Source of the DNA: Escherichia phage ETEP102
Sequence record: OR979723.1
DNA length: 48,422 bases
Direction: 5' to 3' (one strand)
Part shown: positions 170 to 47,738 of the stretch, piece by piece
Layout: every line of letters starts with the position of its first letter
Position numbering within the stretch: position 1 is the first letter of the stretch
Translations under genes and position numbers: made by a program
Notes under the pieces: model-generated
Told to the model about the DNA's origin: nothing
Seen by the model: only the letters and a program-made list of their open reading frames with translations
Databases searched by the model: none

Positions 170-236
170 TTATTTTCTCCAGTTCTCTTCACTCGTTTCG
201 ATGGAGTAATAATAGCGAATCACACCTGATCGGTCA

Positions 237-254
237 TTAGCAAAAAAGTGCTAT
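237..254 (-). promoter_or_regulatory. ATAGCAC-N5-TGCTAA motif copy (minus orientation) upstream of gene at 169
   Basis: Minus strand reads AATAGCACTTTTTTGCTAATG, then about 23 nt to TATTAT, then leader CCATCGAAACGA, GGAG and ATG. Confidence 0.45.
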
Positions 255-267
255 TCGTTGGATTTAT

Positions 268-374
268 GGATTGTTGCAGATATTGCAATGATTCACTTCA
301 CTATTGCACATATAGCAATATTGCATCGTTTGCAATGATGTTTTAGATTGTTGCGAATTGAGCAATGATTCATT
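268..374. repeat. array of ATTGCA/TGCAAT palindromes and a 27-bp direct repeat (operator/iteron-like)
   Basis: GATTGTTGC(A/G)...CAATGATTCA at 268-296 and 346-374; inverted repeats TATTGC-N7-GCAATA (302-320) and ATTGCA-N5-TGCAAT (321-337). Confidence 0.5.
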
Positions 375-532
375 GATGGGGGGAATGATGGGGTGAAGTC
401 TGATCCCCTGATCGCCTGGTTGGAACTTTCCGCCACACGTTTTCCATCGCATACGCGTAATTGTGCGTAACGCATGTATAGGCCTTGTATGCTGTGTAAC
501 GATTTGGCCTAAGCATACGCGGCATACGCAGT

Positions 533-622
533 TTTACGCATTAGTTACAATAAAATATCTATATATAACAACCATTTATCTATATTATTATTATTATATA
601 TATCTATGTATACTGTGTAACG
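533..622 (+). repeat. AT-rich ~88-bp element, copy A (second copy at 28967-29056)
   Basis: TTTACGCATTAGTTACAATAAAATATCTATATATAACAACC...ATTATTATTATTATATATAT...CTGTGTAAC; about 85 percent identical to copy B, same orientation. Confidence 0.6.
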
Positions 623-890
623 GTTGTCTAAGTGTGGCATCTGTCAAATTTGATAATATCCCCCACTAATATATAAGAGAGCCATTCCGCCAGGATAATA
701 GGGCCATATGCAGACAATCACCTTTCAGTATGCGTTACACGATATACCGCCTACTTACACCAGTCGTAGCGAGGCCTCCAAGGCGGAAATGTTTCCCGAC
801 CTGTTTTTTACATGCGATTACGGTTGACTTACGCGTTAACTCCCATCATAATTGCCTCACTTAAACGCAACAATCAAATGAGGTAACGAG

Positions 891-1427
891 ATGGATAAGG
901 TAACATTGGGTGATGTGATTCGCGAGATGGTACGCCAGGCAATTAAGTCCGACAAGAAGCTGTGCGTAGTTCCGGTTCGCAAGATATTCAACCTGGTAAA
1001 TGGTCATGATTATCCAGATGAAATACTGGACGAGGTGACGGGGGAGTACATGACTCCCGGGCGTGAGATCGTAGGTCTTAAAAGTTCATACATCTATAAC
1101 ACCGCAGCAAGAATGCAGGAGCTTCGGGATATTGATATGCACGTCAAGCATCGCTTTATCTGGCTGGCGTCAGGAGAGGAAACTGTAGCACGCAAGGCGG
1201 ATGGCGACGGCGCTGATAAGAACCTGTTAATCCAGCTTGAACCCGGGGCACTTAAGCCAACCAAACGAAAGACTGCAGATGTTGAGAGAGAAGTGGCAGC
1301 TATTGAAAGGTTCAAGGCTCGTCTGCTCAAGATCACACCAAACGTCATCGACCTGAAAGGCGAGCAGAAAGAAGGCGCTCTCATTGCCCTGGCACGTTAC
1401 CATGAAATGATTAAGGATACTAACTAA
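891..1427 (+). CDS. hypothetical protein (178 aa)
   Basis: ORF with GAGG about 9 nt upstream of ATG; no recognisable motif. Confidence 0.5.
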   Translation: MDKVTLGDVIREMVRQAIKSDKKLCVVPVRKIFNLVNGHDYPDEILDEVTGEYMTPGREIVGLKSSYIYNTAARMQELRDIDMHVKHRFIWLASGEETVARKADGDGADKNLLIQLEPGALKPTKRKTADVEREVAAIERFKARLLKITPNVIDLKGEQKEGALIALARYHEMIKDTN

Positions 1428-1987
1428 TGTTTAATTTCGACGAAGATAAATTGACCGATGAAAAGGTGATGGAAGTCGCCAGGCAAGATAACCTGCCTCC
1501 ACTTCGTGTGGCAATCAATGCTAATGGATACCGTCAATAATTCAAGTTCTGGCCCAGCGCCGAAGAGATGCTGTGCGTCAAGTTGAGCTACAAATACGGC
1601 GTCGTAGTGAGCAGGATTCGCCGCCAGTGCTGCAACGGGAAGGGAGTGTCTGGCATTCGATCTCTATACGAGGCAATCCGAAAGGTCCAGCCATTCGTCG
1701 GGCGCGAAGGGATTATGCATGACCTGACAAATAACATCATCCCAGCACTACAGGAGGCGGGAATTGTTTGCCTCATTGGCGATAAGATTTATGTGCATCC
1801 GGCCCTGGTGGGAATGTATGAGCGAGACGTGTACAACTGGTGCAGTCAGTACCGATCTGATGCGCCACGCTCTCACTACGTTGAGCCGATTAAGCCGACA
1901 ACCATCCATGGCTATGATGCCGATGAGGTGGAGAAGGCCATCCAGTTCTACCGGAAAGCGAAATCTCTCCTGAATGGTGAATATTAA
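1427..1987 (+). pseudogene. internally deleted remnant paralog of the P-loop ATPase at 44067-45650, with in-frame TAA at 1538-1540
   Basis: 1427-1537 encodes MFNFDEDKLTDEKVMEVARQDNLPPLRVAINANGYRQ (matches N-terminus MFDFNEDKLSIDQVMAVAAADNLPPLRVAINANGYRQ); same frame continues after TAA into ORF 1568-1987 whose GKGVSGIRSLYEAIRKVQPF...IGDKIYVHP matches the ATPase C-terminus; central P-loop region absent. Confidence 0.5.
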
Positions 1988-2199
1988 TGATTATAAAATG
2001 TGTGTATGTAAGGCAAGCCAATCACCACAACCTTTCAGTTGTAAATGGTGGGATATACTCGGCAAAGCCAATCCCTCGCTTTAATGGCTCATACTACATC
2101 AAGGTTGATGGCAATGAGTACATAGTGAAGACGATAGGTGAAGCTCTTATGATAAAGAGCCTTGGTGTGATAATGGCTAAATTCGAAATCGTTCGTTAA
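1987..2199 (+). CDS. hypothetical protein (70 aa)
   Basis: ORF; start overlaps upstream stop (TAATG). Confidence 0.4.
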   Translation: MIIKCVYVRQANHHNLSVVNGGIYSAKPIPRFNGSYYIKVDGNEYIVKTIGEALMIKSLGVIMAKFEIVR

Positions 2200-2217
2200 T
2201 AGCACGAATTGCTAAAC
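2199..2217 (+). promoter_or_regulatory. ATAGCACGAATTGCTAAAC motif copy
   Basis: Palindromic core TAGCA-N5-TGCTA directly after stop codon; 22 nt from TTGCTA to TATGAT (2237-2242); gene ATG at 2273. Confidence 0.5.
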
Positions 2218-2272
2218 AACAAATCGGGTAGTCAGCTATGATTACCCTATCAAAAACGAAGAGGAAATGATT

Positions 2273-2479
2273 ATGGAAACTGTACGCATTGACGATGTTC
2301 ACTTTGACCAAGCAGAGGTCAGCGTTCTGCTCAATCGGACTGGAGTAGTCAAGGCCGTAGTCTCCATTGACTTCGATACTGACGATCAGGGCGTTACCAT
2401 GATGCACTACACACCAGAACAAGCACGCAAGCTGGCGGCAGCGCTTATCCTGGCAGCAGAAGAGGCAGAAAATCAATGA
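2273..2479 (+). CDS. small protein, tandem paralog A (68 aa)
   Basis: ATG 2273 with AGAGGA 7 nt upstream (track start 2267); C-terminal YTPEQARKLAAALILAAEEAE shared with next gene. Confidence 0.5.
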   Translation: METVRIDDVHFDQAEVSVLLNRTGVVKAVVSIDFDTDDQGVTMMHYTPEQARKLAAALILAAEEAENQ

Positions 2480-2694
2480 GAGACATTCGAGTTAACTCAT
2501 CATGGAATCAGGAAACAGAAATCTCAGTAATCAAGGTTCCGTTCGGAAAGATGCGTAAGCGCGTGCACCTGGACCTTTCGCCGGATTCGCAAGTGGATGT
2601 CGCTGGCATGACATACACCGCAGAGCAGGCGCGCGAACTTGCTGCGGCGCTAATTAAGGCAGCTGAGGAAGTGGAGGCGGAAGTCGATGAGTAA
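2476..2694 (+). CDS. small protein, tandem paralog B (72 aa)
   Basis: ATGA start/stop overlap with paralog A; C-terminal YTAEQARELAAALIKAAEEVE. Confidence 0.5.
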   Translation: MRDIRVNSSWNQETEISVIKVPFGKMRKRVHLDLSPDSQVDVAGMTYTAEQARELAAALIKAAEEVEAEVDE

Positions 2695-2887
2695 ATTCAG
2701 GATCGCATTGATTGACACAACAACCGCCTTCGGTCATCCGGTCAAGTGGTATGACGTCCAAAAACGGGTGGCTTTGTTCTGGTGGGTTACAGTGGCCCAT
2801 GCAAGCCAGCTTTCCCAGGCTCGCTACTGGCTGCATAAGTCCGGCGCACCGCATCGCAAAGAGAAAGTAGTGAGGATTATCGAATGA
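2687..2887 (+). CDS. hypothetical protein (66 aa)
   Basis: ORF overlapping neighbours by a few nt (translational coupling). Confidence 0.35.
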   Translation: MSKFRIALIDTTTAFGHPVKWYDVQKRVALFWWVTVAHASQLSQARYWLHKSGAPHRKEKVVRIIE

Positions 2888-3174
2888 AGAAACTAATTTT
2901 ACTGGCAGCACTTGCTCTGGCTGGATGTGATTTCGGAAGCACCCGTGTAGATTCAGAGGCTCGGCAGAAGATGCCAGTGAATGTCAACGATCGCGTCCAG
3001 GTTGTGAAGATTCAGGAGTTCAGTGATGAACTGGCATACGAGAACGTCAGAGCTATATACGTCATCACCGATAAGGACACTGGTCAGGAATATATCGGCT
3101 TAAGCGGTGTCGGGATCGTGGAAGTTGGTCGCCATGGTTGCGGCAAGGGATGCTCCAGAGAAGATGAACGATAG
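2884..3174 (+). CDS. putative lipoprotein (96 aa)
   Basis: N-terminus MKKLILLAALALAGC: signal peptide plus lipobox LAGC. Confidence 0.55.
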   Translation: MKKLILLAALALAGCDFGSTRVDSEARQKMPVNVNDRVQVVKIQEFSDELAYENVRAIYVITDKDTGQEYIGLSGVGIVEVGRHGCGKGCSREDER

Positions 3175-3189
3175 CACTTTTGTTAAAAC
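3171..3189 (+). promoter_or_regulatory. ATAGCACTTTTGTTAAAAC motif copy
   Basis: Overlaps TAG stop of upstream gene; 22 nt to TATAGT (3208-3213) inside hairpin GGAGAC/GTCTCC; ATG at 3255. Confidence 0.5.
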
Positions 3190-3254
3190 TTGCTCGGAGA
3201 CATTAGCTATAGTGTCTCCTGTCAAGTGAACACAAACCAACTGAGGAATCACAT

Positions 3255-3413
3255 ATGAACAGCATCAACCGTTATATCCCTGTGTCAGTGCCAACCAGCG
3301 TCAATATTCACGGCGTCGGAATGCAAGCCTGCGACGATGGAGCATGGGTATCCTACGCAATGCATAAAAAAGAAATCGAGTCCTTACAGGCGCGTTTAAA
3401 GGCCTTAGAATAG
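3255..3413 (+). CDS. small hypothetical protein (52 aa)
   Basis: ATG with GAGGA 8 nt upstream, downstream of motif/hexamer module; below the 60-aa cutoff of the ORF track. Confidence 0.4.
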   Translation: MNSINRYIPVSVPTSVNIHGVGMQACDDGAWVSYAMHKKEIESLQARLKALE

Positions 3414-3494
3414 ACTCAAAAACATCAAATTTCTGCACCGTCGATTATCGCTGACCATGTTGAGCAGGCAATCAAAGAAGCTGTAGGTAAGCTG

Positions 3495-4061
3495 GTGCAC
3501 GAAGCATGTGAGCAATTACTCAAGGATTTGCCTAAGTACAATGGCGATCCGTGTCACAGCACTGTCGATGCATTCGTTAGTGAAATGGCAAAAGCTCCGG
3601 ATGATGGCGTGAAGTGTTATTACCTTGTCGCAGATGAATTGACGAAGAACGGCAAGTTCACTTTCGGTAGCAATTTCGGTGAAGGCAAGGCGCTCACCAT
3701 GTCAACCGCGAAAATGGAACCACGCATCGGCGGTTACGGGTATGGCAATCGTCACGTATGGGCGGTTGGTGAATGTGAATCAGCACGCGATCGCAAGGTG
3801 GCAGTTTGCTACCATGTTAATAACGGCAGTGCGTTTATCAATGGTTGCGAGTACGCGTATGAAATTGATGAATGCGAACCAGGTTGCGAGCCTCGCCTTA
3901 TCCATATCGCACAAGATGCATTCATCTCTGATTTAAAAGGCGATTACCGATGGAAAGCAAAGAGAATTGGTAAGGTTATGAATGCCAAGGCAACGCTAGG
4001 TGACGCATACGCAATAGTAAATCCTGATTGCGGCGTAGTGGCTAAGTTCTATATCAAATAG
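3495..4061 (+). CDS. Cys-rich hypothetical protein (188 aa)
   Basis: ORF in track; first codon is GTG (in-frame TAG three codons upstream), an internal ATG start is possible; many Cys/Gly residues. Confidence 0.45.
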   Translation: MHEACEQLLKDLPKYNGDPCHSTVDAFVSEMAKAPDDGVKCYYLVADELTKNGKFTFGSNFGEGKALTMSTAKMEPRIGGYGYGNRHVWAVGECESARDRKVAVCYHVNNGSAFINGCEYAYEIDECEPGCEPRLIHIAQDAFISDLKGDYRWKAKRIGKVMNAKATLGDAYAIVNPDCGVVAKFYIK

Positions 4062-4076
4062 CACCTTTTGTTAAAA
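4058..4076 (+). promoter_or_regulatory. ATAGCACCTTTTGTTAAAA motif copy with extended -10
   Basis: Overlaps TAG stop; about 24 nt to TGGTATAAT (4095-4103); ATG at 4135. Confidence 0.5.
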
Positions 4077-4134
4077 GGGGTGGTTCATCCTGACTGGTAT
4101 AATCCCCACATCAACCACACGAAAGGATAGCAAC

Positions 4135-4278
4135 ATGCCGCATCAGCAGAGTAACAACAAGTCATGGACCAAGGCCGCAAGGGCTAAGCGTCGCGGTGAA
4201 CTTAAAGATTTCTTTATCAGTGCAGGCCACACACGTAAAGTGGCATTACAATTAGCCAAACAGAGCGAGAAACAATAA
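4135..4278 (+). CDS. small basic protein (47 aa)
   Basis: ATG with GAAAGGA upstream; MPHQQSNNKSWTKAARAKRRGELKDFF...; stop overlaps next start (TAATG). Confidence 0.4.
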   Translation: MPHQQSNNKSWTKAARAKRRGELKDFFISAGHTRKVALQLAKQSEKQ

Positions 4279-4895: not shown

Positions 4896-4944
4896 AACTA
4901 ACCTTAACGGGCGCACATCGCGCCCACTACTCAGGAATATAAAA

Positions 4945-5562: not shown

Positions 5563-5580
5563 ATAGCACGAATTGCTAAG
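5563..5580 (+). promoter_or_regulatory. ATAGCACGAATTGCTAAG motif copy
   Basis: Immediately after TAA stop; 22 nt to TATAGT (5601-5606); ATG at 5636. Confidence 0.5.
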
Positions 5581-5600
5581 CCCGCTCCGGCGGGTTTTGT
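5581..5600 (+). terminator. hairpin plus T-run (terminator-like, embedded in promoter spacer)
   Basis: CCCGC-TCCG-GCGGG followed by TTTTGTT. Confidence 0.45.
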
Positions 5601-5635
5601 TATAGTTAGTTCACACCAAACGAGAGGAAACAAAG

Positions 5636-5958: not shown

Positions 5959-5979
5959 ATAGCACTTTTTGTTAAAAAC
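5959..5979 (+). promoter_or_regulatory. ATAGCACTTTTTGTTAAAAAC motif copy
   Basis: 22 nt to TATAGT (5997-6002) inside hairpin GGGGTA/TACCCC; leader CCATCGAAAC; ATG at 6033. Confidence 0.5.
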
Positions 5980-6032
5980 AATTCACGGGGTAGCGGTATA
6001 GTTACCCCATCGAAACTAACGAGGAAGCAGAA

Positions 6033-28807: not shown

Positions 28808-28873
28808 TTTGTATTCCTCATTAAGTTGTTTCGTTTCGATGGAGTAACTATACACGCAACGAGCGATCGAGTC

Positions 28874-28893
28874 TTTAGCTATTCGTGCTATTG
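28874..28893 (-). promoter_or_regulatory. ATAGCACGAATAGCTAAA motif copy (minus orientation)
   Basis: Minus strand: CAATAGCACGAATAGCTAAAG, about 23 nt, TATAGT, leader CCATCGAAACGA, then lipoprotein ATG 28807. Confidence 0.45.
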
Positions 28894-29322: not shown

Positions 29323-30363
29323 ATGACCAAGCCACTATTTCAATACTTCACGTCAGAAGAAATGAGCAACGATTTCTATCACAGCAAAGACGAATGGACC
29401 GCTGAGTATGTGTCAGGTTCATCACTAAGCAAGATTCACAGCACTTGCCCTGCGGCGTGGAAGTTTGAAATGAACGCTACGACTAAGGCTCTTGTTTTCG
29501 GCACTCAGTCACACACTAACTTTGAGAGCAAGGCGATGTTTGAACGTCAATATCGCCGCGCACCGAAAGAAAGCGAGATTGAAAACGTGATAACAAGCCA
29601 GGCAGCTTTAGCAACTAAGTTAAAATCATTTGGCCTGACTGGTACAAGCGGCAAGCAATATCCAGAGTTGATTAAAATGATGGTTGATTGTGGTGAAGAC
29701 CTCAACGTCATGTGGCTGATTGATATGATCGCACAGTGTCAGGCGTGGTCCGATGGCGTGGAACTTGTTAAGGCGGAGGACTACGACGCCTGCGTCAGTA
29801 TGCGCCAGGTTCTTGAGATGATTCCTGAACATAACGCCTGCATGAACAGTGAGACTGCATTCCGTGAGTATTCATTGTTTGGCGTGATTTGTGGCGTTAA
29901 AGTTAAGGTGCGACTTGACAATGTTGATATCGTTAAGGATCCAGAGGCAATCCGGCGCATGGGTTACGATCCTGAAGTCCACCCAGAGATTGTCGTTATC
30001 ACAGATTACAAAACGACGATGAGCGCTAACCCGATTGAGTTTCCTCGCCTGGCATTCAACCTTGGTTATTACCTCAAGATGGCATTGCAGCGTGATTTGT
30101 TCGTTAAGTGCTTTGAAGAGACACGCCCAGTAGTAGTCCGATTGTTGGCGCAGGAGAAGAAAGAGCCTTACTTGCCTATGGCTTACCGCATGAGTAGCGA
30201 TCAGCTTAAGATTGGTCGCGCGCAGTATATGAGCGTTATTCATACTTTCTCAATGTGCGAAGCGAATGACGTATGGCCTTCATACAGCAACGGAGAACCA
30301 GAGATTGAGCTTGAGACTCCTGATTGGATTAAAAAGCAGTTCAAGCACATTCTGGAAGCGTAG
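29323..30363 (+). CDS. PD-(D/E)xK recombination exonuclease (YqaJ / lambda Exo-like)
   Basis: KVRLDNVD ... VVITDYKT D-(D/E)xK arrangement; ATG 29323 with GAGGA upstream; upstream of annealing protein and SSB genes. Confidence 0.5.
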   Translation: MTKPLFQYFTSEEMSNDFYHSKDEWTAEYVSGSSLSKIHSTCPAAWKFEMNATTKALVFGTQSHTNFESKAMFERQYRRAPKESEIENVITSQAALATKLKSFGLTGTSGKQYPELIKMMVDCGEDLNVMWLIDMIAQCQAWSDGVELVKAEDYDACVSMRQVLEMIPEHNACMNSETAFREYSLFGVICGVKVKVRLDNVDIVKDPEAIRRMGYDPEVHPEIVVITDYKTTMSANPIEFPRLAFNLGYYLKMALQRDLFVKCFEETRPVVVRLLAQEKKEPYLPMAYRMSSDQLKIGRAQYMSVIHTFSMCEANDVWPSYSNGEPEIELETPDWIKKQFKHILEA

Positions 30364-30378
30364 CACTTTTTGCTAAAC
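30361..30378 (+). promoter_or_regulatory. TAGCACTTTTTGCTAAAC motif copy
   Basis: Overlaps TAG stop; 21 nt to TGATATAAT (30395-30402) in hairpin CGGTGATT/AATCACCG; ATG 30440. Confidence 0.5.
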
Positions 30379-30439
30379 ACGAGCGCGGTGATTTGATATA
30401 ATCACCGTAAATCAAACGAAGTAAACAAAGGTATATATA

Positions 30440-35092: not shown

Positions 35093-35111
35093 ATAGCACT
35101 TTTTGTTAAAC
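35093..35111 (+). promoter_or_regulatory. ATAGCACTTTTTGTTAAAC motif copy
   Basis: In divergent intergenic region; 21 nt to TATTAT (35130-35135); helicase ATG 35173. Confidence 0.45.
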
Positions 35112-35172
35112 ATTGGTTTCGATGGCTGTTATTATAACGTCAATCGAACGAACATGAAAGGCATTTAATACT

Positions 35173-37275
35173 ATGGCTATGCGCATTAAATCCATCAAAA
35201 AACAGATAGAGGAACTCGGTCCTCAGAAGATAAAAGAAATTCAGGATAAGTTTACCTTTGGTGACATGGTTCCGTATGAGTACCAGTGCGTGATGTATGA
35301 TGAGATCGGCAAGCGCATTGCTCGCTATAAGCATCCATTCATTGTTAAGGCTTCCGTATCTGCTGGTAAAACAATTGGCTTTGCCATGATCGCGTCTCGA
35401 GTTAAAGAGATGGGACTTTCAATGATGATACTTGCGCGCCAGGGCGACATCGTCGCTCAGGATAGCGAGGAGATCTCAAACTTCGGCGTTCCAAACTCTG
35501 TTTACTGTGCTGGCCTGAATACAAAATCCGCATACTTCCCTATAGTTGTAGGATCGGAAGGTTCAGTGGCGAACGGTCTATTCAAGGCTCTGGGTGACTT
35601 TACTCCAATGGTGCTGGGTATTGATGAATGTCACCAGGTAGACTGGGAAGACCTTGCTGCAGCCATCGGCAATGAAGAAACGATTGAGATGATGCTAACT
35701 GAAAAGGATGAGCGAGTATTCATTGATTACCCTAAAAATCGCGATGGTTATGTCAATGGTTATCTTAATGGCGTAGAGGTTGGCGCCCAGGTAATGGATA
35801 AGCAATTGCTAATCAGCCGGAAGACTGGCGAGCCTGTGTTGGGAACAAAGCGAAGCCAATACACGATCATAATCACTGAGCTAATGAGGCGCTGCAAAGA
35901 GAAGAATGGCAAGGAATTAAGGATATTCGGGATGACTGGTTCTGAGTTCAGAGGAACAGCTCCAATCGTAGTTGACAACCCAAAGCTACCTGGATTCTGG
36001 CGTGAGCAGGTGACTAATATTGACACAAATTACCTTATTGAGTTCGGATCTGTGGTTCCGACTGTTTTTGGTAGTGTCGGTGATGCTGGTTATGATCTTG
36101 ATGAGTTCAAGGCATCAAGTCAGGACGGCACGGCTGACTTCAGCCAGAAAGATATGAAGGCGATGGAAAAGAAAATCCATGACAACGCCAGCATGACCAA
36201 GCGAATCATGGAAATGGTTGTTGAGGAGGCAAAGAAGCGAAACGGGGTTCTTATTACATGCTCAGGGCAGCGCCACTGCAAAGAGGCAGCGAGCTATCTG
36301 CCACCTGACGCCACCTATGAGATCATCACCGAGAAGACAAACACCAAAAAGCGACAAGCAATACTGGAAGCGGCTAACCGTGGTGAAATTAAATACATTT
36401 TCCAGGTTATAGCGCTAACTACTGGAGTTAACGTTCCGTTTTGGGATTTCTCAGTCATCCTGCGTAAGATTGGTTCTCTTACACTACTGATCCAGCTTCT
36501 CGGTCGCGGAATGCGATTGCTTAAACCGTGGCAAAAAGCAATGGGTATGGTTAAGGAAGATCACCTTGTGTGGGATTTCGCGGGTTGCATGGACGAGTTA
36601 GGTCAGTTATACTTTGACCCCATCCTTGAGGAATCACAGTATCAGCGCCGCTTTGACGGTAAGAAAGAACCGAAGAAATGTGAGTTGTGCGGAACTGAGA
36701 ACAGTTTTTACGCTCGCCGTTGCATTCACAGAGACGAAAACGGCAATCGTTGTGAGTATTTCTGGAAGTCTCGCGTATGTGAAGACCAGATTGATGATCG
36801 CACTGGCGAAGTGCTCGCTAAGGGTTGCGGAACTGAGAATGACGTAGTTGCTAGAATATGCCGCTGCTGTGACGTGAGCTTGAAAGACCCCAATGACAAT
36901 CTGACTGGTAAGGCTTACACAAAAAACGACTGGTGCACAGTTAATAGCTTTGAAGTGACGCTGACGAGAAATCAGACTGGTATTCTTTATCGTTACGACC
37001 TTACCGACTCGATGGGGGTTAACTTCATTGCTTATGAAAAATTTTTCCCTCAATCAACGGCGCAGGTATGCCACACGATATGGAAACAAAAAGGTGTATT
37101 GCCTCATGTGCATGACAGCAAGATCGCAAAGTTAATGGCAGCTTACAGAAGTGCGAAAATGATTTTAAACAACGCTCACCACATAGCACATCCGGTGCGG
37201 GTAACACACCGAAAAAATGCAAAAGGTGATGATATTATTTCACGTAAAGATTTCGGATTGGATGGTAACTTATGA
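35173..37275 (+). CDS. SF2 DEAD/DEAH-box helicase with C-terminal Cys-rich domain
   Basis: Walker A SAGKT, Walker B GIDECHQ, C-terminal CELCG...CIHRD...CRCC cysteine clusters. Confidence 0.75.
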   Translation: MAMRIKSIKKQIEELGPQKIKEIQDKFTFGDMVPYEYQCVMYDEIGKRIARYKHPFIVKASVSAGKTIGFAMIASRVKEMGLSMMILARQGDIVAQDSEEISNFGVPNSVYCAGLNTKSAYFPIVVGSEGSVANGLFKALGDFTPMVLGIDECHQVDWEDLAAAIGNEETIEMMLTEKDERVFIDYPKNRDGYVNGYLNGVEVGAQVMDKQLLISRKTGEPVLGTKRSQYTIIITELMRRCKEKNGKELRIFGMTGSEFRGTAPIVVDNPKLPGFWREQVTNIDTNYLIEFGSVVPTVFGSVGDAGYDLDEFKASSQDGTADFSQKDMKAMEKKIHDNASMTKRIMEMVVEEAKKRNGVLITCSGQRHCKEAASYLPPDATYEIITEKTNTKKRQAILEAANRGEIKYIFQVIALTTGVNVPFWDFSVILRKIGSLTLLIQLLGRGMRLLKPWQKAMGMVKEDHLVWDFAGCMDELGQLYFDPILEESQYQRRFDGKKEPKKCELCGTENSFYARRCIHRDENGNRCEYFWKSRVCEDQIDDRTGEVLAKGCGTENDVVARICRCCDVSLKDPNDNLTGKAYTKNDWCTVNSFEVTLTRNQTGILYRYDLTDSMGVNFIAYEKFFPQSTAQVCHTIWKQKGVLPHVHDSKIAKLMAAYRSAKMILNNAHHIAHPVRVTHRKNAKGDDIISRKDFGLDGNL

Positions 37276-37769: not shown

Positions 37770-38184
37770 AGGTGACTACCTGGAGTATTACACTCCAGAC
37801 AAAACGGATACGTGGACTGAGAACAAGCACCAGGTCGACTGCGTAACCTGGACAAAGGTTAGGCATGGTGAGTTATTGTTCTGGCACGCTGTTAATGAGA
37901 ATAAAAAACACATTCATACCGCTATAAAGGATGCTCAGAGCGGGTTATTGAAGGGTGTTAGTGACTTTGTATTCCTTCTCGGTCCGTTCGGTAAATACCC
38001 GTTTGGGGCCATAGAATTGAAGAGGGTAAATAAGAGCGGAAAAGGCAAAGCGTCACCAGTCAGCAAGGAGCAGAAAGATTTCCTTCGTCTCGTTCGTGAG
38101 CGTGGCGGTTTCGCGGCGGTGGCGTACGGCCAGGAAGAATATAAGAAAGCGGTTCATGATATGCTGAATAGCACGAATTGCTAA
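37753..38184 (+). CDS. VRR-NUC-type PD-(D/E)xK nuclease
   Basis: GVSDFVFLL ... GAIELKR arrangement; ATG 37753 (track start 37696). Confidence 0.5.
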   Translation: MAIKDKGDYLEYYTPDKTDTWTENKHQVDCVTWTKVRHGELLFWHAVNENKKHIHTAIKDAQSGLLKGVSDFVFLLGPFGKYPFGAIELKRVNKSGKGKASPVSKEQKDFLRLVRERGGFAAVAYGQEEYKKAVHDMLNSTNC

Positions 38185-38186
38185 AG
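38168..38186 (+). promoter_or_regulatory. ATAGCACGAATTGCTAAAG motif copy
   Basis: Encodes last residues NSTNC of upstream gene; 22 nt to TGTATTAT (38204-38211); leader CATCGAAACGAAG; ATG 38251. Confidence 0.5.
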
Positions 38187-38250
38187 ACGAATCGGTGAGG
38201 TGGTGTATTATCACTTCATCGAAACGAAGTGACCAACTAAGGGAATCAAA

Positions 38251-39388: not shown

Positions 39389-39619
39389 ATGGAAAAGTTG
39401 CAATTTGATTTAACTGAGCAGGCTCAGTTCCTTTTGTTTCGCGGTCTTGTTTGCACGGCTCTTACAAAGGCTGGGTTCAAGGGTGATGCTTGGGTATTCT
39501 CAAATCTTGACATGTCATTTGAAGAGGTCCAAGGCACTCCATTTGAATCATGGTCAAGATCAATAGCAAAAGATCTCGCAGACTATAAGCGCGATTGCCC
39601 TGAGGATTTTCACGAATAG
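39389..39619 (+). CDS. hypothetical protein (76 aa)
   Basis: ATG 39389 with GGAG upstream. Confidence 0.4.
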   Translation: MEKLQFDLTEQAQFLLFRGLVCTALTKAGFKGDAWVFSNLDMSFEEVQGTPFESWSRSIAKDLADYKRDCPEDFHE

Positions 39620-39634
39620 CACGAATTTCTAAAC
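39616..39634 (+). promoter_or_regulatory. ATAGCACGAATTTCTAAAC motif copy
   Basis: Overlaps TAG stop; 22 nt to TGGTATACT (39651-39659) in hairpin ATACCAGC/GCTGGTAT; ATG 39690. Confidence 0.5.
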
Positions 39635-39689
39635 ATACCAGCCGCTGTGCTGGTATACTTCTTTCACGCCAACGAAACGAGGAATCAAC

Positions 39690-40484: not shown

Positions 40485-41627
40485 ATGGCTATTCAGAAAA
40501 TTAGTGACGAACAATTCATTGCCGAGCGCGAAGCTGGTAAAACTCTACGTCAAATAGCTCAAGAATACGGTATGAATATTCGAACTGTAGAGCAGCGTTC
40601 AAGTCGCCTCGCGAAGCGTGGAGAGTTTCACGGAAACAAGCACGTAAGCGTACATGTTCCAGAAGGGTTTCAGGTTAAAGGTACATCGACAATGATTCGA
40701 GCCGATGGCTCAGAGGTTGTGCGGTGGGTAAAGACAGATCAGGACAAGGAGAAGTTAGCCGCCATGATGGATGCCGCGATTGAAGCATTCTGTGAAGAAA
40801 TCCCACGCGCAGATCCTCAGCCTATTCTTGGCGAGCCTAACTATGATGAGAATCTCCTGGCACTGTATCCAGTGTTCGATCTACACATCGGCGCAATGGC
40901 ACACAAGCATGAGTGCGGTGAAAACTACAGCACCGACATCTCTGAGAAAGTCCTCAAGAACTTCTTTGATTACTCGGTTGGCGTAGCTCCTAAAGCAAAG
41001 AAAGCCGTATTGCTAATCGGTGGTGACTTCCTTCACTCTGATGGCCTGGACGCTGTAACGCCCGCAAGCGGTCACGTACTGGATCAGGATAGTCGATACG
41101 CTAAGCTCGTGCATGTTGCAATTCGTTCCGTCCGCCGCGCTGTGGCAAAAATGCTGGATAAACACGAGGATGTCGAAATTCAGATCATTGAGGGCAATCA
41201 TGATCAGGCGGGAATGATTTGGTTGCGTGCTGCCATGGCTGCATACTTCGAAGATGAATCGCGCGTAAAAGTTGACGTATCCCCAATGATTCTCCACCGA
41301 ACCAAGTGGGGTAAGACGCTACTCGGATACACTCATGGTCACACCATGAAGAAGGCTGACACTCGACTGGCGGCGATGGCAACAGATTTCCGTGAGGAGT
41401 TCGGGACCAGTAAATATATCTATACGCATAGCGGCCATTGGCACCATCAGACGATCACGGAAGGAACTTTGGGAATTGATGAGGTTCACGGTCAACTAGG
41501 AGCAAAAGACGCATATGCGGCTCGCGGCGGATGGCGCTCTTATCGACAGGCAGCTGTGATCTTGTATTCAAAAGAGTTCGGTGAGGTTGGTCGATTCGTT
41601 TACCGTCCAGAGATGAGTGATATTTGA
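40485..41627 (+). CDS. calcineurin-like metallophosphoesterase with N-terminal HTH domain
   Basis: Phosphoesterase motifs DLHIG, GGDFLHSD, EGNHDQ, GHTH, GHWHH; N-terminal HTH-like GKTLRQIAQEYGMNIRTVEQ. Confidence 0.6.
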   Translation: MAIQKISDEQFIAEREAGKTLRQIAQEYGMNIRTVEQRSSRLAKRGEFHGNKHVSVHVPEGFQVKGTSTMIRADGSEVVRWVKTDQDKEKLAAMMDAAIEAFCEEIPRADPQPILGEPNYDENLLALYPVFDLHIGAMAHKHECGENYSTDISEKVLKNFFDYSVGVAPKAKKAVLLIGGDFLHSDGLDAVTPASGHVLDQDSRYAKLVHVAIRSVRRAVAKMLDKHEDVEIQIIEGNHDQAGMIWLRAAMAAYFEDESRVKVDVSPMILHRTKWGKTLLGYTHGHTMKKADTRLAAMATDFREEFGTSKYIYTHSGHWHHQTITEGTLGIDEVHGQLGAKDAYAARGGWRSYRQAAVILYSKEFGEVGRFVYRPEMSDI

Positions 41628-41645
41628 TAGCACTTTTTGCCTAAC
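41627..41645 (+). promoter_or_regulatory. ATAGCACTTTTTGCCTAAC motif copy
   Basis: Follows TGA stop; 22 nt to TATATT (41665-41670) in hairpin TAGCGCC/GGCGCTA; ATG 41698. Confidence 0.45.
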
Positions 41646-41697
41646 ATGTAGCGCCGATTGGCGCTATATTTACATCTCACTATCAGAGGATTCAATC

Positions 41698-41923: not shown

Positions 41924-42002
41924 ATGCTTCTTTTCCGAGCGACGATAATGTATCATGTTTTTACTAACTTAATATTGACAAACAAAATAAAAGGCGGTTC
42001 AC

Positions 42003-43069: not shown

Positions 43070-43071
43070 AA

Positions 43072-43095
43072 GGAGCCGAAAGGCTCCATTTTTTT
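43072..43095. terminator. bidirectional rho-independent terminator
   Basis: GGAGCC-GAAA-GGCTCC flanked by A-run and T-run between convergent operons. Confidence 0.7.
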
Positions 43096-43288: not shown

Positions 43289-43607
43289 TATCGCTCATCT
43301 TCTCTATGTTCATCATCTCACATGTATAGCGATCACTCTCACCGCCATAGCACCTGAAATGAAATTCAAACGGCCTTTTTTGCGCCCCTTTGGACCAGTA
43401 CCAGTTATTAACGCCGTCTAGGTATCCCTCACCCATACACCTTGCTATGAACTCCTTTGATGATGATGAGGCGAAGTAGCGAGGCGTAACTCCAGCAGAC
43501 TTTGCCAGTCGTTCGCACTCCCTATGCTTGTATATGAATACCGCCAGGTGCTGACGGTTGAATTTTTCATAGCCTTCGCAAAAACGGTACAGATCCAGAA
43601 GAAACAT
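43233..43607 (-). CDS. hypothetical protein (124 aa)
   Basis: ORF starting 2 nt after the HNH stop. Confidence 0.45.
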   Translation of the reverse strand: MFLLDLYRFCEGYEKFNRQHLAVFIYKHRECERLAKSAGVTPRYFASSSSKEFIARCMGEGYLDGVNNWYWSKGAQKRPFEFHFRCYGGESDRYTCEMMNIEKMSDNELFGKPGRNRRDNQMQF

Positions 43608-43609
43608 GA

Positions 43610-44134
43610 TTAGCGCCCGTGGTTATGGTGGAATTTAAGCCTTGCCCTAGCATCAATCACGGCCTGGCAGGCATCATCAAACAGGTAAAAAGTTCCTAGT
43701 GCAATTCTTTTACCGCTCAGGGATATTCTGGCCTTGAACTTCCCGTTCTTTTCAATCGTAACGCCAGGGAATCCGCTGGTGTTATTCTTATATACACTTT
43801 TGTTTTTTGAGTTATCTTGAGCCGATACAAGCCTGAGATTTACTCGTCTATTATCCATTCTATTATGATTTATGTGGTCAATCTGCATCCCCTTCGGTAT
43901 TTCACCCTCTCAAATATTCCATATTACAACGTGATTTGTCAGCCTCTTACCACCATAATCGAAACGCCTATAGCCACCTCTTGACTTATTGCCGCAATAG
44001 TTACCTTCTATCGCGGTTGGGTTTATTGTCCTAAGCCAGACTAAATCAATACCATCATAACCAATGTCAGGATAGCAATCGTGGGTTAACATATACCTTG
44101 TCTCCAATTGTGCAGGTGTAATATTTCTCATCAA
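43610..44134 (-). pseudogene. HNH homing endonuclease interrupted by in-frame TGA (43910-43912)
   Basis: Track ORFs 43910-44134 and 43610-43888 are in the same frame; joined reading ...HVVIWNI-stop-EGEIPKGMQIDHINHNRMDNRRVNLR matches intact paralog ...HRVIWYIHNGEIPEGMEVDHINHERDDNRISNLR. Confidence 0.6.
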
Positions 44135-45650
44135 GCATTGGCAGTAAGTGATCTTTAATCTTTGTCATTATCCCGGCCTGAGATTCGAATGGCTTAACCT
44201 TACGCGCCGCTTCATATAGGGATCGGACACCTACAACGCCTTTCCCGTTCTTGCCTTGCTTGATCAGGATGTCAATCAGCTTGTTCATCTCAGCATGGTC
44301 GCCAGCATGACCAGCAGCGTTTGCAGATGACAGATAAGTCTTACTCAGTTCCTGGAACATAATTACCGCTTCCTGCATTGTGTCAAGCTCAATCTCTCTG
44401 GACTTCTGCGGACTCCCGCCATTGGGATTAAACCAGTTACGCACAGTGTGAAGAACAGCAGCAATCCTGATGGCCTGCTTATCGAACTTACCCAACGCGC
44501 CGCGCAACATTGTGTGTGAATACTTCCCGCCGTCCGCAAGGTGAGGCTCCATATCCTGACGCGCACGGTTGAGATATTTCATCGCCGACGTGCTCACTGT
44601 CAGGTTGACTTCGTGTTCGCTCATGATCTCATGGACCAGACGGAAGTAGTCCGCCTTGAGTCCGCCATCAATCGGCTCGTATGTTGATTCGCCTTTTTCG
44701 TCAACGAATACACGCTCGCCAAGGAATGACTTCTCACGCACAAGCAAGAAACGTTCTGACACACCGATACCACGCGCACCAGCATTCATGATCGCGTTGA
44801 TTGTTTCATCCTGTGCAATTACAGAGATGCAACCCATCGCAATAAAGCTCATGTTATTGTCTGCGTTCGCACGCGCGATAGATACGTTACCAGCATCCCA
44901 TGCTTTCAGCACAAGCTCGCTGTTCGTTTTCTTTGAACCGTCACCATAGGTCATGCCTAAAAGTGAGTTCACGCTCGTCGCTTCATCCGAGATCACAGAG
45001 AAGTTGCCCTGGCGGTTGTTGATTCTCGCAAGACCTTCCGGCGTGGTGTCTGATACGGGGAACACGATGTCACAAAGGCGTTCCAGTTTTTCTTCCAGTT
45101 CTTCTTTTTCCTCAAACAGCGCCGCCATGTCAGATGGTGATTTCTCCTGCTTCATCTCCTTGGATAGAGCGGAAAGCTTAGCCATAATCTTCTTGCGGTC
45201 ACGCCTTCGGATCTCGTTGAGTCGCTCAGTCTCGGCGATCATCGGGGCCAGTGAAAGTGAGTTGATAGCTGATTTACCCGTCGATGGTGGCTGACTGGTT
45301 ACGACGTACAGCGCGGTAGGCTGTTGTGTTCCGTGATACTCAACCGTAAATCGTCCAAGCATCGCAGCAGAGATACATCCCAGGAAGTGCATATAAGCAG
45401 ATGACTCGGGGAACTGGACTGAGCGAGCAGCGTTGCTCGATAGTTTACCAACGACATCATGATCGTTTCCCAGGGAGATGACGGGATATTTGTCACCGCC
45501 TGAGTCAATCTCTGTAGGAGCTTTCCAGAATGACTGGCTCTGCCTGTATCCGTTGGCATTGATGGCGACGCGCAGAGGCGGGAGGTTATCGGCGGCGGCG
45601 ACAGCCATAACCTGATCAATTGACAATTTATCTTCGTTGAAATCAAACAT
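44067..45650 (-). CDS. P-loop ATPase, putative replicative primase-helicase C-terminal-type (DUF3987-like)
   Basis: Walker A-like SQPPSTGKSA; 527 aa; AAGGAG RBS; family name from recollection only. Confidence 0.5.
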   Translation of the reverse strand: MFDFNEDKLSIDQVMAVAAADNLPPLRVAINANGYRQSQSFWKAPTEIDSGGDKYPVISLGNDHDVVGKLSSNAARSVQFPESSAYMHFLGCISAAMLGRFTVEYHGTQQPTALYVVTSQPPSTGKSAINSLSLAPMIAETERLNEIRRRDRKKIMAKLSALSKEMKQEKSPSDMAALFEEKEELEEKLERLCDIVFPVSDTTPEGLARINNRQGNFSVISDEATSVNSLLGMTYGDGSKKTNSELVLKAWDAGNVSIARANADNNMSFIAMGCISVIAQDETINAIMNAGARGIGVSERFLLVREKSFLGERVFVDEKGESTYEPIDGGLKADYFRLVHEIMSEHEVNLTVSTSAMKYLNRARQDMEPHLADGGKYSHTMLRGALGKFDKQAIRIAAVLHTVRNWFNPNGGSPQKSREIELDTMQEAVIMFQELSKTYLSSANAAGHAGDHAEMNKLIDILIKQGKNGKGVVGVRSLYEAARKVKPFESQAGIMTKIKDHLLPMLDEKYYTCTIGDKVYVNPRLLS

Positions 45651-45720
45651 TAATTTTACTCCTTAGTGGTGCGCTAATGTTAACGCACCTATATTAAATC
45701 CGACCACTAATAAATGCTAC

Positions 45721-46074
45721 TTATTTGTACGCCGCTTCAAATTTATAAGTTTCGCAAATGGTATTGAATCCGACCTCATCATCTCGGTAAATCTGCCACG
45801 CAAAGCCTTCTTCGTCAAAGATATACCCAGCGTTACTTCCCAGACCTGCGTGCATATCAACCTGGTATCGCTTGCCGTTCTTGAAACTCTTCTCCACTGG
45901 CGAATTGTGGTTAATTTTTGTAACGTAAAGTGTTTTGGTCTTGATGTATCTGCCTTTGATACTCAGGTTGACCCACTTACCATCGATCTTGACCTGTTCA
46001 AATCCATTCTTGCTGACGCGAGCTTTCAGGAGGCGATTGGCGGAGGTAACGAAGTTTTTAGTGGTTATTGTCAT
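45721..46074 (-). CDS. hypothetical protein (117 aa)
   Basis: ORF downstream of motif/hexamer/leader module on minus strand. Confidence 0.45.
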   Translation of the reverse strand: MTITTKNFVTSANRLLKARVSKNGFEQVKIDGKWVNLSIKGRYIKTKTLYVTKINHNSPVEKSFKNGKRYQVDMHAGLGSNAGYIFDEEGFAWQIYRDDEVGFNTICETYKFEAAYK

Positions 46075-46137
46075 TTTGATTTCCTTTATGTGTTTCGTTT
46101 CGATGAGATGAATATACAGGAAAAGCCCAGAATGGCT

Positions 46138-46158
46138 TTAGCAATTAGTGCTATTTTA
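46138..46158 (-). promoter_or_regulatory. ATAGCACTAATTGCTAAA motif copy (minus orientation)
   Basis: Minus strand: follows TAA of methyltransferase gene; 22 nt to TATATT; leader CATCGAAACGAAAC; ATG 46074. Confidence 0.45.
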
Positions 46159-46830
46159 GCTGTTGGCGAGGTATACGGCACGGGCGAACCCGCGCGGGGT
46201 TAGAGAGCGAAACTGCTTGGTCTTTGCTGACTTACCTCCAAGGAAGCGCCAACCCCAAAAGAAACCAATGTTGATGGGGCCAGGCTTCTTAACTGGCTCA
46301 ATAAATCCGTTACCATGCCAGATGCAGGTCTTTTTTGTATAACCGTCGTATTTCGGCATTTTATCGTGATAAGGCATATCGCCAGCCTTCATGAGTCCGC
46401 CGTACTCGTGAGGGTTAAAGTAAAAATCAGGCTTACGCCATAGCGTTGACAGTTTGCCTACCGGATTCTCAACCATCCATGGAGCGTCAAAGTGATTTCC
46501 AACCTCCTCCACCAGCTTTGCATTAGCCAAGGCGTAAGCAAGCTCATCTTCGCTGCGGTCGTGCTGAGATCCTGACTGAGAAAACAGCGTGCAGTCAGGG
46601 AATCCGATAACCATTTGTGCCGGAGGTATTCCGAACAATTCGCACTTCGTTATGAAATCCTTATCAATCCACATATTGACATAGTGAATGTTCTCATGCT
46701 GCATCTTGACTTGATACTCGCCATGATTACCGGAGTCAGCATTAAAGCAGTAAACGGTGTGCCCGTTCTCAGCCCATGGGAGTCCAGCGATACCGGAACC
46801 GTCAAACATGCAGTAAATTACCTTTTTCAT
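46156..46830 (-). CDS. DNA cytosine-5 methyltransferase-like protein
   Basis: Motif I-like MFDGSGIAG, motif IV-like GFPDCTLFS (PC dipeptide), motif VI-like MVENPVG; short (224 aa). Confidence 0.45.
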   Translation of the reverse strand: MKKVIYCMFDGSGIAGLPWAENGHTVYCFNADSGNHGEYQVKMQHENIHYVNMWIDKDFITKCELFGIPPAQMVIGFPDCTLFSQSGSQHDRSEDELAYALANAKLVEEVGNHFDAPWMVENPVGKLSTLWRKPDFYFNPHEYGGLMKAGDMPYHDKMPKYDGYTKKTCIWHGNGFIEPVKKPGPINIGFFWGWRFLGGKSAKTKQFRSLTPRGFARAVYLANS

Positions 46831-46985
46831 TTCTTCATTGCCTTCTTGATTGCTTTCTGTGTGATTTCGAAACTGCTTTGCAGGTCTTCAACTTGCGCGG
46901 ATGTGATCCATGGATACCATCCTTTACCCGACATCTTCGCTATCGTGTCATTATCGTAATAGTTCAGATCTGAAGGTTTAAGCAT
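46827..46985 (-). CDS. small hypothetical protein (52 aa)
   Basis: ATG with GAGGTG 5 nt upstream; stop overlaps methyltransferase ATG (ATGA). Confidence 0.35.
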   Translation of the reverse strand: MLKPSDLNYYDNDTIAKMSGKGWYPWITSAQVEDLQSSFEITQKAIKKAMKK

Positions 46986-47226
46986 CTTTCACCTCATCAA
47001 AAGTTGCAATTCCAGGAATAAACATTCCAACCTTCCAGCCAGCGATGGCAACCCATCCAGAATCGTGCTTGTGCGGTCGCTCAGCGCCATTAATCAACCA
47101 CTCGTTCGGGATTGTCTTGCCGTTAATGATTAGCGGCTCAGCGTCGTATACAGAGCCTTTTACAAATGGCGTTAAAACCTTTTTGTCGGTGCTGGTGATT
47201 ACGTTCGTGCAGCGAATTTTCATCAT
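46978..47226 (-). CDS. hypothetical protein (82 aa)
   Basis: ORF in minus-strand early operon. Confidence 0.4.
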   Translation of the reverse strand: MMKIRCTNVITSTDKKVLTPFVKGSVYDAEPLIINGKTIPNEWLINGAERPHKHDSGWVAIAGWKVGMFIPGIATFDEVKDA

Positions 47227-47232
47227 GAGTCC

Positions 47233-47448
47233 TTAAAACGGTATGCCGTCATCAAATTTTAATCGATAGTCGAAGTCATCCCCGATTCCATCGACTGACT
47301 GGTTGCTCTCGCTTTCCAGATCCATATCCATAATTCCGAGAGCGTCATCAAGTTCTATACATCCATAAGCTACCTTGAGCGCCCACTCTTCATTAAGTCC
47401 GGCTTCAAGTGCCGCGCGGTGGCGGCTCCAGAAATTATCTTGATTCAC
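47233..47448 (-). CDS. small acidic protein with SSB C-terminal tail mimic (KFDDGIPF)
   Basis: 71 aa, GTG start with GGAG 6 nt upstream; acidic C-terminal half ending FDDGIPF, the same motif that ends the phage SSB (FDDDIPF). Confidence 0.5.
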   Translation of the reverse strand: MNQDNFWSRHRAALEAGLNEEWALKVAYGCIELDDALGIMDMDLESESNQSVDGIGDDFDYRLKFDDGIPF

Positions 47449-47450
47449 CG

Positions 47451-47675
47451 TTAGCTCCAGGAGTTGATATAAAGTGAGTTGTCGTTTAACAGATTGATCA
47501 TCTCGGCACGGGTGAGGCTACGGATTATTTGGCCTGGATGAGTGCCAAAAACGTAGCGATCGAACTCACGGCGCGTAATGGTGATCTGACTAACGCCTGC
47601 TGAGCGGTCAAGTTTGATGATTGCGCGGCCTTTGGCTTCGATGTGTGCTACTACGTTCTGAACTTTAACTGACAT
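47451..47675 (-). CDS. hypothetical protein (74 aa)
   Basis: ORF with GAGGAAG RBS downstream of motif/leader module. Confidence 0.4.
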   Translation of the reverse strand: MSVKVQNVVAHIEAKGRAIIKLDRSAGVSQITITRREFDRYVFGTHPGQIIRSLTRAEMINLLNDNSLYINSWS

Positions 47676-47738
47676 TTTTACTTCCTCTTGTGTACTTCGT
47701 TTCGATGAAATGATTATGCCTCAATCCGTGAGGCTTAG

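Follow-up and report, generated by a model that had tools for sequence, protein, structure and literature searches.

Early genes of Escherichia phage ETEP102 (sequence record OR979723.1; the window is the whole stretch of 48,422 nucleotides (nt) analysed here) are preceded by a recurrent short element, CCATCGAAACGA, which raises the question whether this element acts in the leader RNA near the ribosome-binding site (RBS) or belongs to the promoters that drive these genes. A sequence-only reading had placed it between the promoter hexamer and the RBS, and had proposed a translational operator, an RNase site, a stability element or the distal part of a composite promoter. The analysis favours the last of these, with a probability of roughly 0.55 for the reading as a whole: CCATCGAAACGA probably represents positions -2 to +10 of a promoter cassette, i.e. 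its transcription-start end, and would constitute the start-site and initial-transcribed module of phage promoters that depend on a host activator. The initial observation is thus confirmed and its interpretation was partly right, with the element appearing as the downstream part of a composite promoter and not as an RBS-linked operator; what had been overlooked is a larger structure that includes an upstream marbox-like repeat and hairpins.

A search of the window with CCATCGAAACGA, tolerating up to two mismatches and using 100 shuffles as control, yielded 12 matches as compared to 4.35±2.2 expected, a number reached by none of the shuffles, and the 8-mer CGAAACGA was found seven times versus 1.8 expected. 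All eight copies named beforehand were recovered, each of them intergenic and with coordinates shifted by at most 1-2 nt, and all eight sit between a TATAAT-like hexamer and the Shine-Dalgarno sequence/ATG. The remaining four matches (1257+, 7400-, 12383- and 26994+) lie within coding sequence without a promoter and look like chance. Degenerate versions of the motif are present at seven further promoters (cassettes 2-5, 8, 9 and 13 in the table below). The core AAACGA has 37 copies in the window, ten of which fall at +4 to +9 of predicted start sites, positions amounting to ~0.5% of the sequence; this count used 16 predicted start sites, corresponding to 15 real promoters and one false positive. 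A match of the box/-10 scan at 34612-34630 (-), GCAGCACGAAAAGCTAAAG, was rejected as a false positive, being the coding 3′ end of the gene for a Cro-like regulator, followed by a terminator at 34575-34602 (-).

Alignment of the flanks revealed that the element closes a cassette of fixed order, composed of ATAGCAC-N4/5-(T)TGCTAAA(C/A/G), a variable spacer of ~19 base pairs (bp), a TATAGT/TATTAT/TATAAT hexamer, 4 nt, CCATCGAAACGA, and then 9-33 nt up to the Shine-Dalgarno sequence and ATG. The distance from the -10 to ATCGAAACGA is 6 nt and the cassette totals roughly 60 bp. The window contains 15 cassettes, eight with the canonical and seven with a degenerate motif, which are confined to the two early/middle arms (193-6018 and 28831-47756); the cassette scan found none in the structural block.

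The position of the motif is set by the -10 and not by the start codon. In a set of 95 promoters from six genomes, whose logo shows the motif, all 40 occurrences of ATCGA begin at one of two distances from the -10 hexamer, 6 nt past it in 34 and 7 nt past it in 6, and in the window a constant 4 nt separates the -10 from CC and 6 nt separates it from A. The distance of 15-25 nt before the ATG proposed earlier holds approximately; copies in the window stand anywhere between 9 and 33 nt ahead of the ATG, while their distance to the -10 stays constant. Predicted leaders of the 95 promoters measure 16 to 37 nt up to the ATG, or 21 to 34 nt where the copy is canonical. Of 149 leaders, 97 contain the AACGA core (~0.1 expected per leader), 65 of them at +6 or +7, with a positional entropy of 2.55 bits when counted from the start site and of 3.83 bits when counted from the ATG. 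No copy of the motif was found before promoter-less internal genes in the six genomes examined. Phage Opt-719 carries TATAAT-6 nt-ATCGAAAC-AAAGGAGG at 9664-9700, ahead of a gene that adjoins the major capsid gene, and this copy lacks an upstream marbox; a motif behind such a boxless TATAAT ties the element to the -10/start site, and not to the RBS or the box. The suggestion of a composite promoter is therefore borne out by the lock to the -10, by the motif straddling the predicted start site, by its absence before promoter-less genes and by the conserved upstream box that accompanies it. Neither a fixed spacing to the Shine-Dalgarno sequence or start codon nor presence before promoter-less genes, as would mark an RBS-linked operator, was observed.

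Leader RNA offers no support for a structured element either. When 29 distinct canonical leaders were folded, the mean energy was -1.0 kcal/mol as compared to -2.3 for shuffles, with ~75% of the motif unpaired, and a structured RNA element in the leaders is ruled out by this weaker-than-shuffled folding. An Rfam search of the window returned tRNA-Arg as the only match and no cis-regulatory family, while the duplex energy of motif pairing with 16S rRNA or with the phage tRNA-Arg was no better than that of a shuffled motif. Thus, an RBS-tied translational operator, RNase site or stability element finds no support in the form in which it had been put forward.

ETEP102 is a T1-like siphovirus. Its helicase–Dam region is ~91% identical to that of Escherichia phage CJ19 (Drexlerviridae, Nouzillyvirus), and its genes are ordered as in T1. 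The cassette is present in 15-20 copies each in CJ19, ESCO41 (Nouzillyvirus), T1 (Tunavirinae), Opt-719 (Rogunavirinae) and Klebsiella phage MUC-5.2 (Webervirus), and also in BEK1-1 (Braunvirinae), where 14 boxes were counted at one mismatch or fewer. The loss of conservation in relatives that the sequence-only reading had named as a sign against the element was thus not seen, since it is kept in all Drexlerviridae genomes examined. Among phages outside the family with related replication genes, Salmonella phage Segz_1 has no box and Vibrio phage K219 has one, a number expected by chance, which makes the cassette specific to Drexlerviridae; the comparison is neutral as to a dependence on a host factor. 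When viral contigs in IMG/VR were scanned with a pattern made of the box, a fixed gap and TATNNT only, such that downstream sequence was not used for selection, 163 promoters were obtained, all with distinct spacers. Their logo displays C(-1) in 129 of 163 and A(+1) in 146 of 163, followed by T C G A A A C G A A, with exact ATCGAAACGA in 45 and ATCGACAACG in 14. Across 44 orthologous promoter pairs from different genomes, identity is 0.87 for +1 to +11, 0.86 for the extended -10 and 0.81 for the discriminator, as compared to 0.70 for the spacer and 0.72 for +12 to +22; the identity of +1 to +11 relative to these flanks hence points to site-specific purifying selection and not merely to shared descent. 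One complete cassette (box, GGGGTA/TACCCC hairpin, TATAGT and ATCGAAAC) was also observed at 10085 (-) of a 174,436-bp IMG/VR viral contig with a GC content of 41.5%, before an open reading frame of 90 amino acids, and this single example from outside the family suggests that transfer of the cassette from one type of phage to another is possible.

The upstream box is the same sequence as a 21-nt intergenic direct repeat, aaATAGCACnnnTTGnTAAAA, described for TLS and also for T1, Rtp and Rogue1 (German et al. 2024, PMC11447400), and like that repeat it is intergenic and co-directional with the downstream gene. That re-annotation of TLS reports 18 repeats, ~76 nt ahead of start codons, and no more than three σ70-like promoters; the function of the repeats was left open, a stoperator, an enhancer site or an UP element being suggested. 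In the window cassettes, box start and start codon are ~71-90 nt apart. TLS repeats and ETEP102 cassettes share orientation, position and the scarcity of ordinary σ70 promoters, and in the searched passages of that paper a marbox match, a fixed -10 or a downstream CCATCGAAACGA find no mention (PMC11447400).

The box looks exactly like a class II marbox, the kind of site that would be read by the host stress activators MarA, SoxS or Rob; the match lies in the sequence, and binding is what it would imply. Using the marbox consensus AYnGCACnnWnnRYYAAAY (PMC3709825), 14 matches at one mismatch or fewer were found in the window versus 0.98 expected, four of which fit 14 of 14 specified positions, and the phage box shares 16 of 19 positions with the marbox of the E. 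coli mar operon. Anchored on the -10, it spans -50 to -32 in forward orientation, overlapping the -35 position. E. coli micF, the textbook case of a class II promoter, reads ACAGCACTGAATGTCAAAA-19 nt-TAGAAT, with a gap identical to the 19-bp gap of the phage, and the Rob contacts in the micF activation complex are at -47, -45, -38, -37, -35 and -34 (PMC9178005); on the same anchoring, the phage GCAC at -47 to -44, G at -38 and AAA at -35 to -33 correspond to these contact positions. Class II promoters have a forward site near -41, no recognisable -35 and a good -10 (PMC10268841). In the phage promoters, the -35 match to TTGACA averages 1.7 of 6, about chance, as compared to 1.9 for published class II promoters (PMC10268841), and the -10 reads TATAGT or TATTAT; G(-14) occurs in 128 of 163 promoters, and A(-11) and T(-7), both used as selection criteria, in every selected one. 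The cassettes thus have in common with class II mar/sox/rob promoters of E. coli and Salmonella such as micF an asymmetric 19-20-bp marbox in forward orientation, a 19-bp gap, a good -10 and no -35. They differ from host marbox promoters such as micF, which lack the start-site module CCATCGAAACGA and the spacer hairpins, and from host marbox sites generally in belonging to a virulent phage, in numbering ~15 copies per 48 kb and in fitting the consensus better than most host sites.

No canonical σ70 promoter (a TTGACA-like hexamer 16-18 bp before the -10) was found in the cassettes, with the -35 score at chance, and generic σ70 promoter scans gave no enrichment (17 versus 13.4 expected and 39 versus 34.5). 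TTGCTA was considered as a -35 and rejected, its spacing to the -10 being 22±1 bp with no alternative -10 at 17 bp. As to the reader of the box, no phage-encoded MarA-like activator was detected by Pfam on 20 early open reading frames, which showed only a weak Cro-like helix-turn-helix (HTH), HNH, VRR-NUC and DUF domains, nor by tblastn of six phage genomes with MarA and SoxS sequences. We infer from this lack of an AraC/MarA-like protein in the phages that a host activator is the simplest reader.

Given a 6-nt discriminator and the usual 7-nt rule, transcription is predicted to start at the A of CCATCG. Over +1 to +20, the 163 promoters contain 70% purine and 10.7% T, and -10-like hexamers are depleted, occurring in 3.7% of these regions versus 21.9% of background 20-mers. 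The region is accordingly conserved, purine-rich and in fixed register from the -10 and predicted start, as an initial transcribed element should be, and it is this -10-fixed register together with the purine-rich, T-poor +1 to +20 that leads to the motif being read as a start-site/initial-transcribed module. Purine-rich initial transcribed sequences reportedly favour promoter escape in the work on T5 N25/N25anti, and T5 N25 is said to carry a conserved purine-rich sequence starting at +1. Among the T7 early promoters, which use the host polymerase and have annotated starts, A1 reads GATACT-TACAGCC-ATCGAGAGG and A3 reads TACGAT-GTACCAC-ATGAAACGACAG, so that CCATCGA in A1 and GAAACGA in A3 stand in nearly the same register as the phage motif. 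T7 A1/A3 and the phage cassettes share a purine-rich conserved sequence from +1 and a C-A start 7-8 nt past the -10. The T7 and T5 promoters, unlike the phage cassettes, have -35 hexamers and do not need an activator.

In the favoured mechanism, a host activator of the MarA/SoxS/Rob type, most likely the constitutive Rob, would bind the box at -50 to -32 (ATAGCAC-N5-TGCTAAAY) and replace the contact between σ70 and the -35. RNA polymerase would use the TATAGT/TATTAT -10, which with its conserved G at -14 lies exactly 19 bp past the box as in E. coli micF, and would start at the A of CCATCG, the motif fixing a C(-1)/A(+1) start, as the 7-nt rule and the CC-A-TCGA context of T7 A1 indicate. The motif would then supply a purine-rich, T-poor initial transcribed sequence free of -10-like hexamers, allowing a precise start, efficient escape and no σ-dependent pausing. 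As a predicted by-product, all such mRNAs would share the unstructured 5′ end AUCGAAACGA before the RBS.

Several points weigh against this mechanism. The searchable literature holds no start-site mapping or transcriptome data for T1-like phages, which makes the +1 a rule-based prediction, nor any paper linking these phages to MarA/SoxS/Rob or the mar/sox/rob regulon. The T7 likeness consists of two 7-mers and could be coincidence. Conservation of the exact motif is also tighter than would be required if a purine-rich initial transcribed sequence of any kind sufficed. Furthermore, a variant with a 1-nt insertion, ATCGACAACGA, and copies shifted downstream (cassette 12; AACGA at +9 to +12 in ~20%) suggest that a floating AACGA core matters, which a sequence-specific reader at the protein or RNA level fits at least as well. 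Finally, roughly half of the cassettes are without the canonical motif, and hence it is not essential for promoter function.

Hairpins form a further constituent of the cassette. An inverted repeat of at least 5 bp encloses the -10 in 34-40% of promoters versus 4-6% of mismatched controls, with one arm in the spacer (~-24 to -19 or -22 to -17) and the other in the discriminator (-6 to -1). The 36 different complementary arm pairs, including GGGGTA/TACCCC, GGGGTT/AACCCC, AAGGCC/GGCCTT, GGAGAC/GTCTCC and TGAGTGC/GCACTCA, amount to covariation. This repeat could act in DNA or in read-through RNA, and the asymmetry of G:U versus A:C pairs gave no discrimination for sense-strand RNA. In other cassettes (5, 12 and 15), a terminator-like hairpin occupies the stretch from box to -10 and has the T-rich -10 as its U-tract, and the annotated T1 terminators at 39998-40024 and 41980-42007 show the same placement; judged from these positions, the predicted terminator of one unit overlaps in hairpin cassettes with the promoter of the unit that follows. 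This arrangement is reminiscent of the promoter–stem-loop cassettes (PeSL) of T4-type phages, said to have been described by Arbiol et al. in 2010, which likewise are reportedly a repeated early-promoter unit with a stem-loop between small early genes and a plausible recombination joint. The PeSL reportedly differ in promoter type and sequence, and the hairpin of the present cassettes lies inside the promoter, in the spacer or around the -10.

The main rival to a start-site module, though an unlikely one, takes the predicted 5′-terminal RNA AUCGAAACGA as a tag that is read by a host or phage factor, serving in protection from 5′-end-dependent decay, in the discrimination between phage and host mRNA, or as a site of processing that equalises read-through and primary 5′ ends. 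A role of this kind is conceivable since the predicted start site falls inside the motif, so that its last 10 nt become the mRNA 5′ end; transcription is predicted to begin at the third base of the motif, the motif is predicted to be single-stranded, it is strictly strand-specific and anchored to the start site, its sequence is conserved beyond what a compositional constraint needs, and at least a third of the cassettes have a hairpin ending at -1, which in read-through RNA would give a stem-loop followed by AUCGAAACGA. Such a tag is disfavoured by the same lack of a conserved RNA structure, an Rfam family or complementarity to 16S rRNA or phage tRNA as reported above, by the half of cassettes without the motif, and by the fact that no candidate reader protein was found. 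RNase E prefers U-rich sequence, which the motif does not resemble.

Quite unlikely, in turn, is an operator on +1 to +10 that would shut the promoters off later in infection, bound by the putative Cro-like regulator of 157 amino acids (34607-35080) or by a host LacI-family protein such as Cra. Repressors typically sit over +1, TCG-AAA-CGA forms a small palindrome, and the regulator's own divergent promoter region holds two inverted motif copies (35114-35125 and 35142-35151); this HTH protein is the only recognisable regulator and is conserved in T1, ESCO41 and Webervirus, and the half-site of a Cra-like host repressor resembles GAAACG. An operator would however not need the strict orientation and register to the -10, the common variant ATCGACAACGA alters the half-site spacing by 1 bp, and the sites are single without a second half-site. 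Motifs of IHF, H-NS, Cra and PurR and σ-dependent pause elements show at best half-site resemblance to the motif.

Even less probable is a passive conservation, in which a mobile or recombining promoter unit is homogenised by duplication or gene conversion and carries along a motif without function of its own. The recurrence of the whole cassette ahead of unrelated genes, the stop codons of upstream genes inside the box and the complete cassette in a viral contig of a different size class would fit this; the 163 distinct box/-10 spacers do not, and neither does the site-specific purifying selection on +1 to +11 in orthologous promoters. The RBS-linked translational enhancer or operator first suggested is essentially refuted by a start-codon distance of 9-33 nt in the window and 21-34 nt family-wide, by its absence before promoter-less internal genes and by the lack of 16S complementarity, even if leaders are A-rich and unstructured and short ones have the motif adjoining the Shine-Dalgarno sequence (e.g. 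AACGAGG at 39676 and 6019).

Table. The 15 promoter cassettes of the ETEP102 window.
Cassette	Span	Strand	Box	-10	Motif or sequence in its place	Predicted +1	Start codon	Remarks
1	193..254	-	254-236 ATAGCACTTTTTTGCTAAT	214-209 TATTAT	204-193 CCATCGAAACGA, exact	202	169	spacer 1 nt longer
2	2199..2258	+	2199-2217 ATAGCACGAATTGCTAAAC, 14/14 specified consensus positions	2237-2242 TATGAT	2247-2258 CTATCAAAAACG, degenerate			inverted repeat GGGTA 2226-2230 / TACCC 2243-2247 flanks -10 (2226-2247)
3	3171..3229	+	3171-3189	3208-3213 TATAGT	CCTGTCAAGTGA in place of motif			inverted repeat GGAGAC 3196-3201 / GTCTCC 3214-3219 flanks -10 (3196-3219)
4	4058..4119	+	4058-4076	4098-4103 TATAAT	ACATCAACCACA, degenerate, then CGAAAGG			
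5	5563..5622	+	5563-5581	5601-5606 TATAGT	TCACACCAAACG(A), variant			terminator-like hairpin 5578-5597 within spacer
6	5959..6018	+	5959-5977	5997-6002 TATAGT	6007-6018 CCATCGAAACTA			inverted repeat GGGGTA 5987-5992 / TACCCC 6003-6008 flanks -10 (5987-6008)
7	28831..28891	-	28891-28873	28852-28847 TATAGT	28842-28831 CCATCGAAACGA, exact	28840	28807	
8	30360..30418	+	30360-30378 GTAGCACTTTTTGCTAAAC	30397-30402 TATAAT	GTAAATCAAACG(A), variant			precedes Erf-like recombinase gene
9	35093..35151	+	35093-35111, 14/14 specified positions	35130-35135 TATTAT	TCAATCGAACGA, variant			helicase gene
10	35114..35174	-	35174-35156, degenerate	35136-35131 TATAAT	35125-35114 CCATCGAAACCA			Cro-like regulator gene; divergent from cassette 9
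11	38168..38227	+	38168-38186	38206-38211 TATTAT	38216-38227 TCATCGAAACGA	38218	38251	
12	39616..39680	+	39616-39634	39654-39659 TATACT	39669-39680 CCAACGAAACGA, variant, displaced 5 nt downstream			hairpin 39635-39656 overlaps -10; motif adjoins Shine-Dalgarno sequence
13	41627..41686	+	41627-41645	41665-41670 TATATT	without motif (TCTCACTATCAG)			
14	46095..46154	-	46154-46136	46116-46111 TATATT	46106-46095 TCATCGAAACGA	46104	46074	
15	47697..47756	-	47756-47738, 14/14 specified positions	47718-47713 CATAAT	47708-47697 TCATCGAAACGA	47706	47675	hairpin in spacer, placed by the scan at 47718-47734 on the + strand

Some of the cassettes and boxes show peculiarities of placement. At 35130-35136, the -10 hexamers of the divergent helicase (+) and Cro-like regulator (-) promoters, TATTAT and TATAAT, overlap almost fully, and each start module falls within the other's spacer. 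Stop codons of upstream open reading frames lie inside the box, as TAG of ATAGCAC or TAA of GCTAAA (2199, 3171-3174, 4058-4061, 38182-38184 and 39616-39619), meaning that the cassette begins exactly at gene ends. An orphan marbox at 24178-24196, ATCGCACGAAAGGCTAAAC, with 14 of 14 specified positions and without a -10, ends 3 nt before the start codon of the tail-fibre gene (1126 amino acids), and an orphan marbox precedes the tail-fibre gene likewise in T1 (25021), CJ19 (15391-), Opt-719 (18574) and BEK1-1 (8550-). A palindromic orphan box, TTAGCACGAATTGCTAAAG, is located at 33561-33579 between the tail-fibre and primase genes, beside a terminator at 33610-33627, and is found at the same place in T1, CJ19, ESCO41 and BEK1-1.

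Outside the cassettes, the window contains a few good canonical σ70 matches, at 6831-6859 and 6979-7056 and also at 824-852 and 29262-29289, which include TTGACA-17-TATCTT with an upstream TG before tRNA-Arg(UCU), TTGACT-17-CATAAT before a DUF7174 gene and TTGACT-16-TATAGT before the exonuclease VIII gene; these are candidate activator-independent promoters. The two divergent early arms are separated by a non-coding region of 640 bp (255-890) with three 32-nt repeats containing TTGC…GCAATGATTCA (264-372), a tandem TGATGGGGGGAA (374-397), ACGCATACGC-type repeats and an AT-rich segment at 540-610, and this region could hold operators, an origin or a pac region.

Both kinds of element found here are known, one from class II marbox promoters and the other from phage early promoters with a conserved initial transcribed region; their combination into a family-wide promoter class with a marbox, in-promoter hairpins and a start module is new, in that it was not found in the searchable literature. 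Joining the TLS repeats with the start module gives a complete testable promoter model (marbox, 19-bp gap, -10 and start module), and its interest lies in making the question of transcription in the T1 family directly testable. Among coliphages and Klebsiella phages, the T1-like ones rank with the commonest, and therapy collections make use of them. If the narrow finding alone holds, it still offers a clean case of a promoter family whose initial transcribed sequence is under selection. The broader proposal, which we regard as having an even chance, is that Drexlerviridae run most early/middle units from ~15 class II promoters per genome through host Rob, MarA and SoxS instead of a -35 contact, with the CCATCGAAACGA module and the -10-enclosing hairpins as phage-specific additions. 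Should this be true, these phages would have host Rob, MarA and SoxS as dependency factors, the cassette would offer a compact promoter part that depends on an activator, and phage gene expression would be wired to the host regulon for bile, antibiotic and oxidative stress, such that inducers of mar/sox/rob (bile salts, salicylate, antibiotics, oxidative stress) would modulate infection.

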